Assembly: GCA_963827275.1 (NCBI GenBank)
Contig: CAWHAA010000005.1
Location: 576,001-640,000, forward strand
Direction of reading: 5' to 3'
DNA: 64,000 nt
DNA from: an uncultured Spirochaetota bacterium
Lineage (GTDB): Bacteria; Spirochaetota; UBA4802; UBA5550
Shown here: positions 24,001 to 33,000 of the stretch, piece by piece
Layout: every line of letters begins with the position of its first letter
Position numbering within the stretch: position 1 is the first letter of the stretch
Made by a program: the position numbers

Positions 24001-27000
24001 GATCCAGCCGGGGTGGAAGTCAAGAAGAAAGCTGGTGTCAGAGTAAAAGGACGCATGATGTGTATAAATGAATCGTTATATTTAATAAATATATCAATAT
24101 TTTTTGGTTTGGGGTCAGAGTAAAATTAATCGAATAATATAATAATTCACCGTCTCCTAGTAGAAATAATTATGGATCGCATGCAAATGTCGGCAGTTCA
24201 CAACAATCTTTTCAACTTCTCGCTTGAATGACTCATCGTATTGTATAGCAATCTCAGGATTATCATGGGTTCGCATAAGATGACGAAGCAGATCCGGTTC
24301 ATGTATTAAAATACTGTAATAATACCAATCTCTTGAAAAAATTGCAGCATAAAGGATTTCATCATCATTAAGAATTTCCCGCGCCCCGCATGAAAACACC
24401 TTCCCCCGATAACTCAGAAAACATTCATGTCGAAAAACGTGGTGTGGGCCTTCCCGATTGAGGAGGCATCCAACAGAACGTCCTTCGTCAACAAAACCCA
24501 CAAAAGGGCATTGAGGACAATCATCGAACAGCGCCGGCAGTGTCAGAGTAAACCCAGCATCATCTTGAACATAATAGGAACCGGTCATATTACTTCGGGA
24601 TGCCACCATCTTTCTAATAAAGTATTTCTCATTATACTCATTTATGACACCAGAACGACGACCAAAAAGTGCTTTAATTTCTTTTAAACTGGCCTTATAA
24701 TTATGGCTGCCACAACACAGTGCACATGATGCGCCATAACCCGGCCTGCAGATGTTAATAATATTATCGTCCATGTTTTTACATGTATGGAGTCAGAGTA
24801 AACATTACAATAATAAAAAAGCCATCCATTATTGAATATCAATTTTTATTTAAAATGCACAGAACTGATTATTCAAAACAAGTAATAAACATTAGATACC
24901 ATAGCAGCAAAGTATTTAGGATGAGGATAAGAAGAAATGAAACGGCATATCCGCGAAATACAAGCAGTTTATGTATATATTGATCTCAGTATATAAACAG
25001 CTGTGAGTATTTCATAAAAATAGACTCTCTGGAAAAATTCGCTTCCTGTACATATTCTCCAAATCCAGCAAAACCCTTTTCCGTTCAGCAAAGATTTTTC
25101 CCAATTGAAGAAAACATTCATGCAAGGTAATTTTAACTGGAGAAATGTAATTATCACTCAAGTAACACAGGATACTACTATAAGGATAATTTCGAGGATC
25201 AACAACTATTTTACTTTTAACCGGATTATAGGCCAGATAAAAGAAAACCGCGAAAAAAGTTGCGACAGGATCATTTGCTAACTCAATTATATTATCTCTA
25301 AATCGTTCATTCCAGAACGGACCAATTCTGTTCATTATACGATTATATCGCCTGGCAAATTGCGCCTTGATATATTGCATAATCCTTGAAATAGTCTCCC
25401 CTTCATTGATTGTCCTGATAAGAAAATGAAAATGGTTATCCATTAACGTATAAAAAATAAGCTCAAATTTATATTTTTCAAGAGCCTTCCTTAATACTTG
25501 TAGCATTAAATCTTTCATTTCATCAGAGCTCATGAGATGTTTCCCCTCTATGCATCGAGACATTGTATGATAGGTTAATTCTGGCATACAAATTCTATTT
25601 TTCCGTGGCATGGCTTTGCCTTCTCCTTTACATAAATGGTGAATTCTTATAATCAATGTGTATACGAACGCTAACATTCTTATGTATAAGAAAAATTCGG
25701 GTCAGAGTAAAAAAAACAATCTTTGATCCATCTGTCAACATATGGGCCTGAGTAAATTATTCTAAGATAGTCACAATTATTACAAAATCATGCTAAATGT
25801 TAAGCACATGTAAAATAATCCCGAAATCAATCTCTATTAAATAAACCATATTGACAGTCGATTGGGTGATTACTATTTTAAATGATATTAATCATTTATA
25901 GAGTTTAATATCATTTAAAATATTGGGGTCAGAGTAAGATATTCATTGAGTTATGATTGAATTAAACAGAAAAACATCCAAAGAAATCGTACAATTGGTC
26001 AACAAGCGAGCCATATCGTGTGAGGAATTGATCCGCCATTATCTATATATGATGGAAACGTATGATCCGCTCCTCGGTTGCTTTACATCGACACGCGACA
26101 CAGAGCAACTACTGATCCAGGCTCGTGAAAGCGACACCCGCAGAAGCCGGGGCGAGGAAAAAAGCCCGATTGATGGCATCCCCATAGCCATTAAGGACAA
26201 TATTCACTCGATGGGCATCCCTACTACCTGCGGATCGGCAATCCTTGAAGGATATCTTCCTCCTTACGATGCCACCACTGTGGCCAGATTGAAAGAACGA
26301 GGGGCTATAGTTATCGGTAAGACAAATCTTGACGAATTTGCCATGGGTTCAACATGCGAAAACTCCGCCATAAAAATAACCCGCAACCCCTGGGACACTG
26401 GCCGTGTACCGGGAGGCTCTTCAGGCGGATCAGCTGCCGCGGTATCGGCCGGTTTTGTGCCGTTTGCTCTGGGCAGTGACACCGGCGGCTCAATCCGCCA
26501 GCCAGCGGCATTTTGCGGCGTAACTGGCCTCAAGCCGACCTACGGTCTGGTCTCACGCTACGGGCTCGTCTCCTACGCATCGTCCCTGGACCAGATCGGG
26601 CCGTTGGCCCGCGACGCGTACGGCTGCGCCCTTCTCCTGAACGCAATAAGCGGGTTTGATCCCCATGACTCGACGTCGCTGCCAGGCCCCGCGGTCGACC
26701 ATTCAATGCACCTGTCAGCAGGCATTCAGGGGCTGCGGCTTGCGGTCATCCCGGAGCTTTTTACGGAAGGGATATCACCCCTGGTGCGCGAGCAATTCGA
26801 AGATTCGATACAACTGCTGGGCGGACTCGGGGCGATGATCGGGGAGGCCTCGATGCCGTCCCTTCATTATGCTATAGCAACATATTATTTTATCGCATGC
26901 GCCGAGGCAGCATCAAACCTTTCACGCTACGACGGCGTGAAATACGGATACCGGAGCGGGAGCCAGCGCGATTATCATGAGATGCTGTTCACCTCCCGCT

Positions 27001-30000: not shown

Positions 30001-33000
30001 CTCCGGTGCGACGCGAACGTGTCCCTGCGCGAGCGCGGCGACGAGGCCCTCGGCGTGAAGGTGGAGATCAAGAACATGAACTCCCTCAAGGCGATCGAGC
30101 GCGCCCTGTCCTACGAGATCGCGCGGCTCGGGACGATGAAAAAGAACAATATCCCCATACGCCAGGAGACCCGGCTCTGGGACGAAAGCGGCCAGAAGAC
30201 CTATTCGATGCGGAGCAAGGAGGAGTCGCACGACTACCGCTACTTCCCCGACCCCGACCTCCTGCCGCTCATGGTTGACGACGACTGGATCGAGCGCGCG
30301 CGGAAAGCGCTGCCGCCCATGCCGCTTGAGCGGAAGGCCCGCTACCAGCGCGAATTTTCCTTCAGCGAGCCTGAAGCGCGCCTCTTCATGATCAACCCCG
30401 CGTACGCGGACTTCTTTGAAAAGGCGCTCGGGTCCTATGACAACCCGCGCAACCTGGCGAACTGGCTCTTTTCCGAGCTGCTCTCCCACGAGGGCGACTT
30501 CGACCGCCTGCATATCACACCCGGGGATTTCGCCGCCTTTTTAAAAAGGGTCGACAGCGGCGAGATCAGCGGCAGGCTCGGCAAGGACATACTGCGCAAG
30601 GCCTTTGCCGGCAAAAAGGGCCTGGTCGAAATAATTGACGAAGAAGGCCTGAAACAGGTCACGGACCGCGGCGCCATAGAAGCCGCGGTGGACGAGGTGA
30701 TACGGGCCAATCCAGGCCAGGCCGCCGAATACCGAAGCGGCAAGACCAGGGTGCTCGGCTGGTTCGTGGGAGAGGTCATGAAGGCCACGAAGGGCAAGGC
30801 CAGCCCGGGGGTGGTGAATGAGGTGCTGAAGGAAAAATTGAAGTAAGTGAGACTACTTGAAGCGCCAGAGGGTCATTTGTGGATGATCTTCAAAAAAACA
30901 TGTGTCCACCAGTAAAATCTTACCATGATAATCCAGTATCATGGAGGCTCCAGCTATTGAATTATGAGTCATCTCATATGGAAGATACCCACCAAGCCCA
31001 AAAGAATAATCCAACATGCCATTTTCATAATAACGCCAAATGACAAAACCCTTGTTATAATAGCCTGATACTAGTAATCTATTCTTTGAATCTGAAACAA
31101 TTGTCATGCCCTTCTGAAATTCATAATAATCTTCAGAAATTCTATAACTTCTTACCATTCCGTTTAGTTCCAAAATTCTCATCAAGCTCACCATTTTCAT
31201 CAAAACACCAAACCGCCATCGTTAACAAAGATGTCATTTCGTTTTGACTAGTACCACTAACCAATATTCTATCCTGTGAGTCAATTATTACGCTCATTCC
31301 ATAATCGAGACAACTTGATTGAGCATTAAAAGAAGCATCATCTCCAACAAAAAGGCCACCAACACAAAAATTCAAATCTGGTGTACCATTTTCATGATAC
31401 CTCCATAACGACATACATTTATAACAAATTGGATAATCAAGAAACTCATCATCTTCATATGCAACACTACCACAGGCTACAATTTTATCTTCTTCATCAA
31501 TAATAAAATCATTACATAATGTTTGAATAGCTGGAGCCCGTTCACCTTCAGAAGCATCACTAATTATAACACCTGTCGAATTAAATCCTTCATCTAATAT
31601 TCCATCACAGTTATATCGCCATAGTGCCATATATATTTTAGTATCAGGTGATAACTATCCCTCCACATACAACAATTCTTCCTCTACTATCAATTTTTAT
31701 TTTTTTGCCAATAGTATCTCCACCAAAAGCCGGGTTGTACTCATGAGCGTCAAAAACCGCAAATATAGTAAGCTTGTTAATCTTGGCACGTTCATCATAT
31801 TTCCAGATGATCATATTATAATGACCAGATTTTTCAACAAAACCAGTAATGTAAATTATCCCACTTGAATCTATTGTCATTCCACTCGCCGAACTTAAAC
31901 TATATAACTCTCCTTTCACATCTGCAGTAGAACCTGTGATATAGCCATTCGTACCGAATCCCAAATCCGGTGATCCATCGGGATTAAAACGCCAGAGAGC
32001 CATATCAGACACTGTATCTTTTAAAATTTGACCCGCAACATATATTCTCCCAAACATGTCGACTACAACAGACATACCCGCTGAATCAGCATCCTGATCT
32101 CCTGGAATATGACCAGATGCAACACCATAATTGCCGAAGCTTATCATCAAGAACACCTGTTGCGTAATAGGGCTCGATAAATGCAGGAAGCGGAATACTT
32201 TTCAAAGGATCCATTGAATCAGTATAAAGATTTCCACAATGAAGTGACAGGATTGAGACGAAGAAAGCGAAGGTAATGAGTATTGCAAAGGATTTATTCT
32301 GCATTCTCACCACAAACTTGAACCAGGGCACAACAATCCCCCGAACTGAAAATATTTTTGTTTAATTTTTAATAATGAATAGGATGTAATAATATTTTTA
32401 AAAAAATATAATGAATATTTATAATATGATTTAAATAGTTACTATTCAAATACAAAGGGGCACATATAAATGCGCCCCTTTGTATTTTTGTTTGCTAAAC
32501 TCTACCATTATGGCATATATGTTCCAGGCAGCGTAATTTCCGTGCTGCCATTCTGCTTGATTTTATATGTTCCACCGCTCGCTTCTCCACCGGTTATGAT
32601 AAGGTCAAAAATAATATACCCATTGTAAAGTCCAGTCACATTTAACTGACCCTTTATAGTGCCATCTATATTATTATAATCTGATAGAACAGTTGTCTGA
32701 TCGCCATCAAGCGTTAGATAAATGTCTGAATAATTTGTAAAGGTCATGACCGCTTTCGCAGATAATATCGTAACATCATATAAACAGTTACCATTCCCAT
32801 CTTTGTCATAAACCTTTTTATCAGAGGTTCCCAGCTCTCCCAGCTTTTCAAACGCACTTTCTAGTTCATTGTACGCCTCGCTAAAGAACTCCTCGTTTGT
32901 AATTGCTCTGTACCCGGCATCAGGATCGCTGCTGCCACCTTCCCCGTTGGCATTGAAAGGCGCTACTTTATACGAAAAAATGCCCGGTGCAACTGCTGTA

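Follow-up and report, generated by a model that had tools for sequence, protein, structure and literature searches.

Two fused genes of an uncultured Spirochaetota bacterium encode a candidate two-chain asparagine transamidosome

Two fused genes and their products

The window, the whole stretch of 64,000 nucleotides analysed here, comes from an uncultured Spirochaetota bacterium and carries two consecutive fusion genes behind a candidate promoter and operator (Table 1). As an earlier note on this DNA had claimed, one reading frame of 963 residues joins GatA to an archaeal-type aspartyl-tRNA synthetase (AspRS) and the next, of 588 residues, joins GatC to GatB; both were confirmed by their open reading frames and by Pfam and NCBIfam matches. 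All four protein parts of the asparagine transamidosome are encoded, GatC being barely above the Pfam cut-off. The repeats between the genes are a local insertion outside the system, and in 13 relatives from the genus the two genes are separated by -12 to 210 bp.

Table 1. Features of the fusion locus, numbered by position in the window
Feature	Position	Strand	Evidence
Candidate operator, imperfect dyad TTA(C/A)-N6-GTAA	25798..25815	.	Conserved upstream, 14/16 genus loci
Sigma-70-like promoter, TTGACA, 17 nt, TATTTT	25851..25879	+	Consensus match 10/12
gatA::aspS2 fusion gene, 963 aa	25953..28844	+	Domain and family profiles, relatives
GatA glutaminase domain, aa 1-477, intact triad K81/S156/S180	25953..27383	+	TIGR00132 above cut-off
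Linker, aa 478-537	27384..27563	+	Length and AlphaFold2 pLDDT
Archaeal-type AspRS without GAD insert, aa 538-963; anticodon-domain H559, P611	27564..28841	+	Profiles, structure-relative alignment
Dispersed REP-like 13-mer, present four times in the intergenic gap	28857..29074	+	Intergenic repeat
gatC::gatB fusion gene, 588 aa	29080..30846	+	Domain and family profiles, relatives
Divergent GatC, aa 1-92	29080..29355	+	PF02686 barely above cut-off
GatB, aa 116-588, with YqeY tail	29425..30843	+	Conserved residues, profiles

Both fusions are real. GatA::AspRS is a single stop-free frame of 957-1116 residues in 15 of the 16 other genomes of the genus, which bears out the earlier statement that it is no frameshift artefact. 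GatC::GatB is unbroken in 13 of these 16, the exceptions being G009, where a contig end splits the gene, G001, which lacks the GatC part, and G004, which has none. All three Pfam families of the first protein occur together on 73 of the 120 protein clusters listed when residues 400-963 served as query (74 of 120 in the earlier count). One might suspect an artefact of assembly or read-through, or else a relic in decay, as frameshifts affect aspS and lysS elsewhere in the same assembly, one relative (G201) has a dead fused GatA without its triad, and G001 has no GatC. However, the identical frame is carried by 22 genomes of the class and 13 others, and its presence in such independent assemblies rules out a frameshift at this locus; moreover, active-site residues are invariant over sequences at 54-99% identity and the promoter region is conserved. 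This explanation is largely refuted, and we hold it to be highly improbable.

In the first protein, Pfam places Amidase at residues 25-468, tRNA_anti-codon at 552-625 and tRNA-synt_2 at 647-957. NCBIfam scores exceed the cut-offs for gatA (564.9 vs 481.1) and for aspartate--tRNA(Asn) ligase (529.5 vs 353 and 417.5 vs 368.4). The top Foldseek matches of the GatA domain are GatA chains (TM 0.9 by target), and the C-terminal part, with an OB-fold and class IIb core and no GAD insert, has 1N9W/3KFU as its closest solved structure (E 5.5e-103), as had been reported earlier. Residues were counted in 68 full-length sequences, six partial ones of 74 being left out. The GatA triad is kept almost throughout (K81 67/68, S156 68/68, S180 67/68); motif 2, motif 3 and the Asp-binding residues are present in 68/68, as are R742 and R937 each, and the anticodon-domain residues H559 and P611 in 60/68 each, with Tyr at the former position in 8/68 and a residue other than Pro at the latter in 8/68. 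These figures uphold the previous count on 67 sequences. In the anticodon loop, E607 and S610 are invariant.

The anticodon-domain His and Pro are taken here to be the signature of a non-discriminating AspRS; a literature search for a paper on their role gave nothing. H559 and P611 align with His23 and Pro72 of 1N9W and with Trp26 and Lys85 of 3NEL. The aligned His and Pro had been described as Thermus H28 and P77; the residues are indeed present, but the Thermus 1N9W numbering is His23 and Pro72, and H28/P77 is presumably that of Deinococcus. A profile name is no proof of non-discrimination, since stand-alone AspRS without His and Pro likewise pass NF003483. The linker between GatA and AspRS is 53-67 residues long in 68/68 sequences, down to 45% identity. 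Its residues ~491-515 are variable and disordered (AlphaFold2 pLDDT <50), and are followed by a conserved helix at 518-527 (pLDDT ~79) with the motif Y[ST]xExIxxISxSY.

The second protein matches GatC at residues 21-90 (25.9 bits, cut-off 23), GatB_N at 117-405 and GatB_Yqey at 444-587, the YqeY tail being the PF02637 match; NCBIfam gatB is also above its cut-off. The GatC part is judged divergent because TIGR00135 (gatC) gives only 24 bits against a cut-off of 47.1; its PDB match is 2DF4_C (E 0.003). The GatC-GatB linker has 20-25 residues in 78 of 79 sequences, and E122, H124, C135, C137, C150, C153, K191, E236, E237, R262 and E269 of GatB, eleven positions that we take to be metal-binding, zinc and tunnel residues, are kept in 79/79. 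A GatB loop, G246-x-x-G249-I-W-G252, is specific to the clade (20/20 fused, 0/31 other GatB). A complex model of GatA (1-488) with GatC-GatB (1-415) scored 0.94 against 0.00 for the best control, where the mark set for this score is reached by 116 of 157 solved pairs and 2 of 215 mismatched pairs. Its runs share at least 96% of contacts, the partner pLDDT is 85, and GatC residues 7-95 contact GatA. Since a like complex has already been solved, the model speaks for likeness only.

Origin of the fusions and companion genes

The fusions are of single origin, with fused GatA, fused GatB and fused AspRS forming one clade each; their members are mostly uncultured Spirochaetota, plus Ca. Uabimicrobium. 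Fused AspRS and the AspRS of clostridial and treponemal operons fall in one group with 96% support, and among GatB sequences the treponemal type is the sister group of the fused copies with 90% support. The precursor order gatA-aspS2-gatC-gatB was not found among 80 loci. The fusions might represent neutral compaction, in which an aspS2-gatCAB operon was rearranged and two stop codons were lost, leaving a dual-specific GatCAB beside an ordinary non-discriminating AspRS with an idle tether. In favour of this, operons of the unfused orders aspS2-gatC-gatA-gatB and gatC-gatA-gatB-aspS2 occur widely, and nature has made AspRS::GatC and GatB::AspRS fusions on separate occasions. The central part of the linker shows neither conservation nor order, and the two elements with which GatCAB reads both tRNAs, a 3-10 turn and a Lys-rich motif, are apparently retained. 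Against this, the linker keeps its length and helix, the new loop is fixed in every fused copy of GatB, both fusions are retained even when their genes lie apart (genus g52, G173, G201, G216), and there is no clear reversion to unfused genes in 39 fusion genomes. Neutral compaction seems unlikely.

The companion genes bear on whether the machine serves asparagine alone. No GatA or GatB was found in this genome besides the fused ones, and none of the 23 class genomes with the fusion has a GatB other than the fused one. Outside the class, 16 fusion genomes were sampled, two of them uninformative: all eight with GluRS and without GlnRS have a second, unfused GatB, whereas fused GatB stands alone in all six with GlnRS. 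For 5 of the 8 GlnRS-less genomes completeness is just 71-87%, and related genomes do not count as independent cases of this contrast. It is seen within two families, and a second GatA is present too in 4/4 GlnRS-less genomes tested. Two draft genomes, G007 and G017 (90-92% complete), are counter-cases with one GatB and no GlnRS found, and G004 and G019 (90-91% complete) have no GatB of any kind. Because the second GatB tracks the absence of GlnRS, the fused machine looks dedicated to asparagine. This co-occurrence suggests that it serves asparagine only in vivo, as opposed to the in vitro description of bacterial GatCABs as dual-specific; every one tested acts on both Asp and Glu in vitro, according to PMC2330236. 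The compaction reading would have it that GlnRS-less genomes hold on to their second GatCAB for one reason alone, the lack of constant expression of the fused operon, and a regulated promoter could by itself account for it.

A separate AspRS is found in 22/23 class genomes, and outside the class a stand-alone 445-residue AspRS without the His and Pro in 12/12 fetched. With a housekeeping AspRS nearly everywhere, the fused AspRS might be specific for tRNA(Asn), a GluRS2 analogue for aspartate that does not aminoacylate tRNA(Asp) at all and is part of a dedicated two-step asparaginyl-tRNA synthetase. The invariant E607 and S610 would fit, and a GluRS2 confined to tRNA(Gln) provides a precedent (passages of PMC3927822 and PMC9976931). 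Yet Thermus and Deinococcus likewise hold two AspRS, of which AspRS2 is non-discriminating (passages of PMC4206432), the anticodon domain has the ordinary His/Pro signature, and no known C36-excluding residue was identified in it. We therefore consider such specificity decidedly unlikely.

AsnRS is retained in most fusion genomes, so the indirect route is extra rather than sole. Nor is it obviously needed in this genome, which itself encodes AsnRS together with AsnB-family and AS-AR-like proteins. Its single tRNA(Asn) has U1-A72 (ARAGORN), the bacterial GatCAB determinant according to PMC2811023.

Promoter, dyad and nitrogen genes

The promoter match is weak when taken alone, since the pattern occurs at 7 sites against 4.0 expected, but a TTGAC -35 box stands at the same place in most genus loci. 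The dyad ends ~35 bp before this box. Related dyads (TTAC-N6-GTAA) precede gltB (glutamate synthase), GSIII (glutamine synthetase), carA, carB and purF, as well as asnB, amtB (ammonium transporters) and an operon with an asparagine-synthetase-like gene and asnS (AS-AR-asnS); perfect-core intergenic dyads lie upstream of nitrogen genes in 6 of 7 cases. With a matrix built from five sites outside gat loci and a threshold of 12 bits, the dyad was found upstream of the fusion in 14/16 genus loci, for which the evidence is circular because the dyad was first noticed at this promoter, and in 6/7 loci elsewhere in the class. The matrix reached this threshold at 0/23 stand-alone gatA loci, 0/28 aspS loci and just 1/8 loci outside the class, and 14 of the 22 sites at or above it lie before genes without an evident nitrogen role.

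At class loci beyond the genus, an AS-AR-like gene is divergent within 0.9 kb in 6/7, and in most the dyad is common to this gene and the fusion operon. Other neighbours of the fusion are asnS, directly upstream in G162, glutamine synthetase III, upstream in G241, and gltB, divergent in G183. In the DVU1949-type nitrogen regulon, a sigma-54 promoter accompanies the DVU1949 motif upstream of the targets (PMC4641369). By comparison, TTGAC boxes follow several of the present dyads, and TGGCA-N5-TTGC was not found within ~125 bp after 8/8. Taken together, the sites suggest that the genes behind TTAC-N6-GTAA form a candidate nitrogen regulon that includes the fusion operon. The shared dyad means that the indirect route is perhaps kept beside AsnRS as part of nitrogen metabolism; why it exists would thus be partly answered by an asparagine-dedicated, nitrogen-regulated extra route.

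A proposed two-chain machine and its known relatives

The locus probably encodes a pre-assembled, two-chain asparagine transamidosome that acts as a dedicated extra route and belongs to the candidate nitrogen regulon. The core of this reading, the two-chain transamidosome, is supported by each sequence test applied. GatC::GatB would dock on the GatA domain in the manner of an unfused GatCAB, and the AspRS domains would dimerise, as expected from class II synthetases, most likely giving [GatA::AspRS]2[GatC::GatB]2. AspRS would load Asp onto tRNA(Asn) and GatB would then phosphorylate the Asp, while GatA would cleave glutamine and send ammonia through the tunnel to yield Asn-tRNA(Asn). We infer these steps from conserved residues and known GatCAB chemistry, and likewise infer activity, tRNA specificity, stoichiometry, channelling, and regulation with its direction. 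A flexible tether of ~25 residues would hold the amidotransferase at the synthetase, so that tRNA is no longer the sole scaffold and, we propose, less mischarged Asp-tRNA(Asn) escapes. In the cell, the machine may provide a glutamine-consuming supply of asparagine for translation, beside AsnRS and the separate housekeeping AspRS, from an operon transcribed as a member of the nitrogen regulon.

A bolder version can be entertained only tentatively. It sees an asparagine-only 'indirect AsnRS', with an AspRS charging mainly or only tRNA(Asn), a looped GatB that does not use Glu-tRNA(Gln), an undescribed nitrogen regulator that acts on TTAC-N6-GTAA and treats the whole machine as a glutamine amidotransferase, and a horizontally mobile, self-contained module that displaced native gatCAB and reached Planctomycetota.

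The transamidosome is a textbook case of tRNA-scaffolded channelling, for which structural work used an artificial linker. A family with a natural GatA-AspRS tether could supply cryo-EM with a particle stable enough to show both catalytic states, and allows a direct test of whether a tether raises fidelity. In databases the fused proteins go under the names 'GatA' and 'GatB' alone (in UniRef, 'Multifunctional fusion protein'), and annotation therefore overlooks the second AspRS.

The closest known system is the asparagine transamidosome of Thermus thermophilus (3KFU, 1N9W), which has the same four protein parts (non-discriminating AspRS2 and GatCAB), an archaeal-type AspRS without GAD and with the His/Pro signature, and is likewise found alongside AsnRS, GlnRS and an AspRS of bacterial type. 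There, however, four separate chains are held by tRNA (passages of PMC3367201 and PMC9499178), whereas here AspRS is covalent to GatA and GatC to GatB. The earlier description as covalent holds for these two links only, and the two chains must still assemble. Thermus reportedly lacks AsnA and AsnB (PMC2330236), unlike this genome with its AsnB-family and AS-AR-like genes, and the new GatB loop, linker helix and candidate nitrogen-regulon dyad are further differences.

No natural GatA-AspRS fusion was found in the literature searched. Nevertheless, fusion as such is not unique, given the AspRS::GatC family and the GatB::AspRS proteins. The former (NF009460/PRK12820, bifunctional AspRS/GatC) is also a natural covalent link of AspRS to an amidotransferase subunit, but in the order AspRS-GatC over 723 profile positions. 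Here, AspRS closes the first reading frame and GatC opens the second; NF009460 is absent from the best 25 families of GatA::AspRS (P0001), and the homologues P0075, P0082 and P0083 score 75-112 bits against its cut-off of 1379. GatB::AspRS proteins (P0083, P0101) also have an archaeal-type AspRS behind an amidotransferase subunit, but the partner is GatB, and the AspRS of these proteins belongs to another clade, which points to an independent origin. Chain C of PDB 3AL0, from the Thermotoga glutamine transamidosome, is GatC-linker-GluRS2, presumably an engineered linker construct, and shows that a synthetase-amidotransferase fusion can fold. A laboratory-selected GatC-GatA mutant of M. smegmatis can fold and supports growth with raised mistranslation; the study that describes it met with no natural gatC-gatA fusion among ~500 genes (PMC7541841). 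Neither of these last two links GatA to AspRS or GatC to GatB, but together with the two natural families they contradict the earlier claim that the complex is known only as separate subunits. The clostridial and treponemal operons hold the same four genes, unfused and in another order. What is new here is the pattern of asparagine dedication, the TTAC-N6-GTAA candidate nitrogen regulon, and a route that is extra to AsnRS.

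Two fused reading frames

The 963-aa ORF passes the curated cut-offs of gatA (TIGR00132, residues 14-477) and of aspartate--tRNA(Asn) ligase (NF003483, residues 541-963; TIGR00458), as expected from the earlier note, which described a complete GatA joined to an archaeal-type AspRS. That note also read the 588-aa ORF as GatC joined to GatB. Its GatB is indeed complete, with a YqeY tail, while the GatC part at residues 21-90 is weak (Pfam 25.9 bits against a cut-off of 23; TIGR00135 under its cut-off; PDB GatC E 0.003). The two fusions are the sole GatA and GatB detected in the genome, which is 92% complete; two further amidases score far under the gatA cut-off. 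This assembly carries frameshifts in housekeeping aspS and lysS, and its gltB, carB and carA calls are short, all probably through long-read indels. Because of the aspS and lysS frameshifts, the fusion frames were checked in independent genomes. GatA::AspRS is a single open frame in 15 of the 16 other genomes of the genus, which bears out the earlier view that it is not a frameshift artefact. GatC::GatB is whole in 13 of the 16; in the remainder it is split by a contig end, lacks GatC or is absent (one genome each).

Coordinates of features in the window, the genome (G000) and compared loci (C, contig; L, locus)
Feature	Location	Strand	Remark
GatA::AspRS ORF	window 25953-28844	+	963 aa
GatC::GatB ORF	window 29080-30846	+	588 aa
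IS200-like Y1 transposase (PF01797)	window 25012-25677	-	divergent from fusion operon
REP-like 13-mer copies	window 4282, 4496, 9848, 24111, 25925, 28857-29074, 39825, 55778		
Three short ORFs, DUF5122 beta-propeller repeats	window 30853-32156	-	convergent on gatC::gatB
AS-AR-like gene	G000:C6:217047-218276 (L005:4045-5277)	-	411 aa; directly before asnS
tRNA(Sec)	G000:C8:213595-213686		ARAGORN call
Frameshifted aspS and lysS	G000:C6:295514-297200, C8:161947-163261		
Dyad sites	G000:C4:743770, C5:450344, C5:725215, C5:151919, C6:218461, C7:88072, C8:302662, C8:307813, C2:50350, C10:185664		
GatA::AspRS of G201	G201:C30 (L378:7425-10229)		935 aa; P0075
Spirochaetal GatB ORFs before aspS2	L107, L118; 3620-6001		794 aa
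Spirochaetal GatB ORF before aspS2	L381; 6418-8286		623 aa

The transposase and the 13-mer, which has 78 copies in the genome limited to some contigs, resemble a RAYT/REP system. The three DUF5122 ORFs are probably one broken gene.

Residues were counted in 68 full-length GatA::AspRS sequences, with six partial ones set aside. The three residues of the GatA triad are conserved in 67, 68 and 67 of these, and the AspRS motif-2, motif-3 and Asp-binding positions checked in 67-68, in keeping with the conservation reported earlier. His559 and Pro611 are each found in 60 of the 68 and align with Trp26 and Lys85 of the structure 3NEL; their counterparts in Thermus AspRS2 are His23 and Pro72, which corrects the numbering H28 and P77 used previously. 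The His and Pro presumably have a role in non-discrimination, on which a literature search found no paper. The linker between GatA and AspRS (53-67 aa in the 68 sequences) comprises, in order, a conserved GatA tail, some 25 variable residues and a conserved helix (518-527), followed by the OB fold. The variable residues (491-515) are disordered in the AlphaFold2 model, in which the AspRS core is poor (pLDDT <50 for 685-758), and the geometry of the tether was therefore not taken from it. The single tRNA(Asn) of the genome has U1-A72. In genome G201 the GatA of the fusion has neither the Lys nor the nucleophile Ser; that genome also carries two GatB and another GatA, which is intact.

Across 79 GatC::GatB sequences no change occurs at eleven catalytic and zinc positions, and 78 of the sequences have a GatC-GatB linker of 20-25 aa. 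A loop, GxxG[IV]WG, is present in all 20 fused GatB of the tree, the 31 others having a variable loop instead, and is a candidate for a new contact. GatA (1-488) modelled in complex with GatC-GatB (1-415) scored 0.94 against 0.00 for the best control, with at least 96% of contacts agreeing between runs and a partner pLDDT of 85; the mark used is reached by 116 of 157 solved pairs and by 2 of 215 mismatched pairs. As the structure of GatCAB has already been solved, the model shows likeness to GatCAB and is not proof of binding.

Distribution and origin

The junction occurs in 23 of 122 genomes of the class: in the genus itself, in another genus of the family (2/2) and in five of seven genomes of a second family, one of them split by a contig end. 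Most other genomes of the class have a stand-alone GatA. A sample of 401 genomes of the phylum yielded 16 with the junction outside the class, from three families, three being cut by contig ends. The fusion sequences carry the source names noted before: Spirochaetota, a single Chrysiogenales bin and Ca. Uabimicrobium. When 1.84 billion representatives were searched with a profile, the best 150 contained a single full-length representative plus a few fragments, and a second family of GatA-AspRS was not seen among them.

In quick, unrooted trees supported by SH-aLRT only, the fused GatA (29 of 69 rows), AspRS (16 of 70) and GatB (20 of 51) each fall on one side of a branch with 98-100% support. 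Fused GatA and GatB lie apart from the stand-alone GatA and GatB of the class, the family having members in both groups, and all 23 fusion genomes of the class have one GatB. The simplest reading is a single origin, with the native gatCAB displaced through transfer; ancient paralogy with differential loss may also account for the pattern. Unfused operons of the same four genes occur in Clostridia and treponemes. Some spirochaetal GatB ORFs before aspS2 exceed the usual 475 aa, with extensions that may be start-codon artefacts.

Apparent dedication to asparagine

AsnRS was detected in 21 of 23 fusion genomes of the class and in 14 of 16 outside it, and GlnRS in 21 of the 23. Glu-AdT here denotes the amidotransferase that acts on Glu-tRNA(Gln). 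Outside the class, in eight genomes with GluRS in which GlnRS was not found (G123, G162, G201, G209, G223, G253, G265, G271), a second, unfused GatB is present in all eight, whereas six with GlnRS (G173, G183, G192, G241, G247, G277) have the fused GatB alone. The contrast recurs within two families (in f9 between G277 and the others; in the second between G173 and G201) and gives a Fisher p of 0.0003 with kinship ignored, several of the genomes counted being only 71-87% complete. A second GatA was found in 4/4 GlnRS-less genomes tested and was not found in G173; the second GatBs form a clade of their own. G007 and G017, with one GatB and no GlnRS found, are counter-cases, and G216 (two GatB) and G259 (one GatB), in which neither GluRS nor GlnRS was matched, are uninformative.

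A bacterial-type AspRS accompanies the fusion in 22 of 23 genomes of the class and in none of the 16 outside it (families f9, f23 and f38; L362-L373), where all 12 sequences fetched include a stand-alone 445-aa AspRS without the His and Pro. This archaeal-type enzyme has a long L1 loop, and Gln where the fused AspRS has His. With a separate AspRS in almost every fusion genome, and a second GatB in the GlnRS-less ones outside the class, the fused machine is not the housekeeping AspRS and apparently does not serve as the Glu-AdT in genomes that require one; for the GlnRS-less f9 the second GatB and second GatA argue against the latter role. Either it would be unable to amidate Glu-tRNA(Gln), or it would be expressed too unsteadily.

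Co-evolution with a discriminating housekeeping AspRS was rejected at the His/Leu site, which has Leu in 22/22 fusion, 50/59 stand-alone-GatB and 8/9 no-GatB sequences (90 of 115 matches fetched). An E. coli-like 'EKN' loop is limited to 15 of 16 sequences of the genus, which are one clade. G090 has two bacterial AspRS, of Leu and His type (C28, C34; L224, L225), and the nine AspRS fetched from family f3 all carry His, in contrast to the remainder of the class. ARAGORN at default settings found no tRNA(Asp) in the genome.

In Thermus, according to PMC2330236, the indirect route is the sole source of asparagine. In the genome studied here nothing matched the AsnA family, but one gene belongs to the AsnB family (TIGR01536 over cut-off) and another resembles archaeal asparagine synthetase A (AS-AR), so that the indirect route is probably not the sole source. 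The AS-AR-like protein (PDB 3P8T, E 3e-15 by profile) lies under the NCBIfam cut-off and was likely missed in annotation for this reason; its single-sequence AlphaFold2 model (pLDDT 33) was not used. It is 69-88% identical across 34 of 122 genomes of the class, occurring in 19 of 23 with the fusion versus 15 of 99 others, and in one of five outside the class. In six of seven class loci outside the genus the gene is divergent from the fusion and at most 0.9 kb away. Reciprocal control of AS-AR and the fusion from a divergent promoter was discarded, this layout being absent in the genus; both carry the same dyad, which may act in either direction. A link between AS-AR and GatB loss was discarded too (5/17 genomes without GatB vs 29/105 with it).

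A candidate nitrogen regulon and known systems

The genus conserves TGTTA(A/C)-N6-GTAAAA upstream of the fusion, 35-36 bp before a TTGAC box. A strict pattern matches 10 intergenic sites in the genome, where 30 shuffles gave 2.6 with a maximum of 6, and the perfect core, TTAC-N6-GTAA, occurs at seven intergenic places, six of them preceding asnB, a purF-like gene, carA, carB, gltB and AS-AR-asnS. The pattern was originally spotted at the fusion promoter itself, and the fusion shares its site with AS-AR at several loci. A matrix trained on five sites, that of the fusion operon excluded, scored 13.9 bits at glutamine synthetase III, 12.6 at carA, 12.0 at the fusion operon, 11.8 at purF and 11.2 at an ammonium transporter; a 13.0-bit site precedes a gene resembling glutamate dehydrogenase. 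Among 3173 upstream regions there are 22 distinct sites of at least 12 bits, 14 of them before genes without an evident nitrogen role. That score is reached in 14/16 genus, 6/7 other class and 1/8 outside fusion loci, and in 0/23 stand-alone gatA and 0/28 aspS loci; the figures for a shuffle p of at most 0.05 are 14/16 genus, 7/15 other fusion, 1/23 stand-alone gatA and 5/28 aspS loci. Genome-wide, dyad sites precede genes of nitrogen assimilation, glutamine-using genes and glnS, a candidate regulon of a putative regulator. Operon neighbours outside the class include asnS (G162), glutamine synthetase III (G241) and gltB (G183). No riboswitch, T-box or other Rfam RNA was matched in the window and five loci (L148 left out), nor was an Asn-rich leader peptide shared among 29 upstream regions.

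On balance, we favour the view that the fused two-chain machine is an Asn-transamidosome run, and presumably regulated, as one among the cell's glutamine amidotransferases. The assembly, probably 2:2, would charge tRNA(Asn) with Asp and amidate the Asp-tRNA(Asn), possibly channelled, with ammonia derived from glutamine; with the tether, the tRNA would no longer be needed as the only scaffold. The chemistry proposed follows from what PMC2330236 says of GatCAB and from residue conservation. The fusion offers a clear natural experiment on channelling and brings two testable additions, though the chemistry is already known.

Literature searches, covering papers outside subscription, again found no published natural GatA::AspRS fusion, nor one of GatC::GatB. 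Among the homologues, P0083, P0101 and P0082 include other AspRS fusions (GatB::AspRS and AspRS::GatC), and some 18 AspRS bear a YbaK domain, two of them named from Patescibacteria. The fusion system, which would operate as the Thermus transamidosome does, has the sequence-level features of that complex and differs from it in that the latter consists of separate chains. The earlier statement that the complex is known only as separate subunits was too strong: natural AspRS::GatC (NF009460) and GatB::AspRS fusions join other pairs of parts of this kind, as do the GatC-GluRS linker construct 3AL0 and a laboratory GatC-GatA mutant, and together these show that fusion of such parts is a recurring theme.
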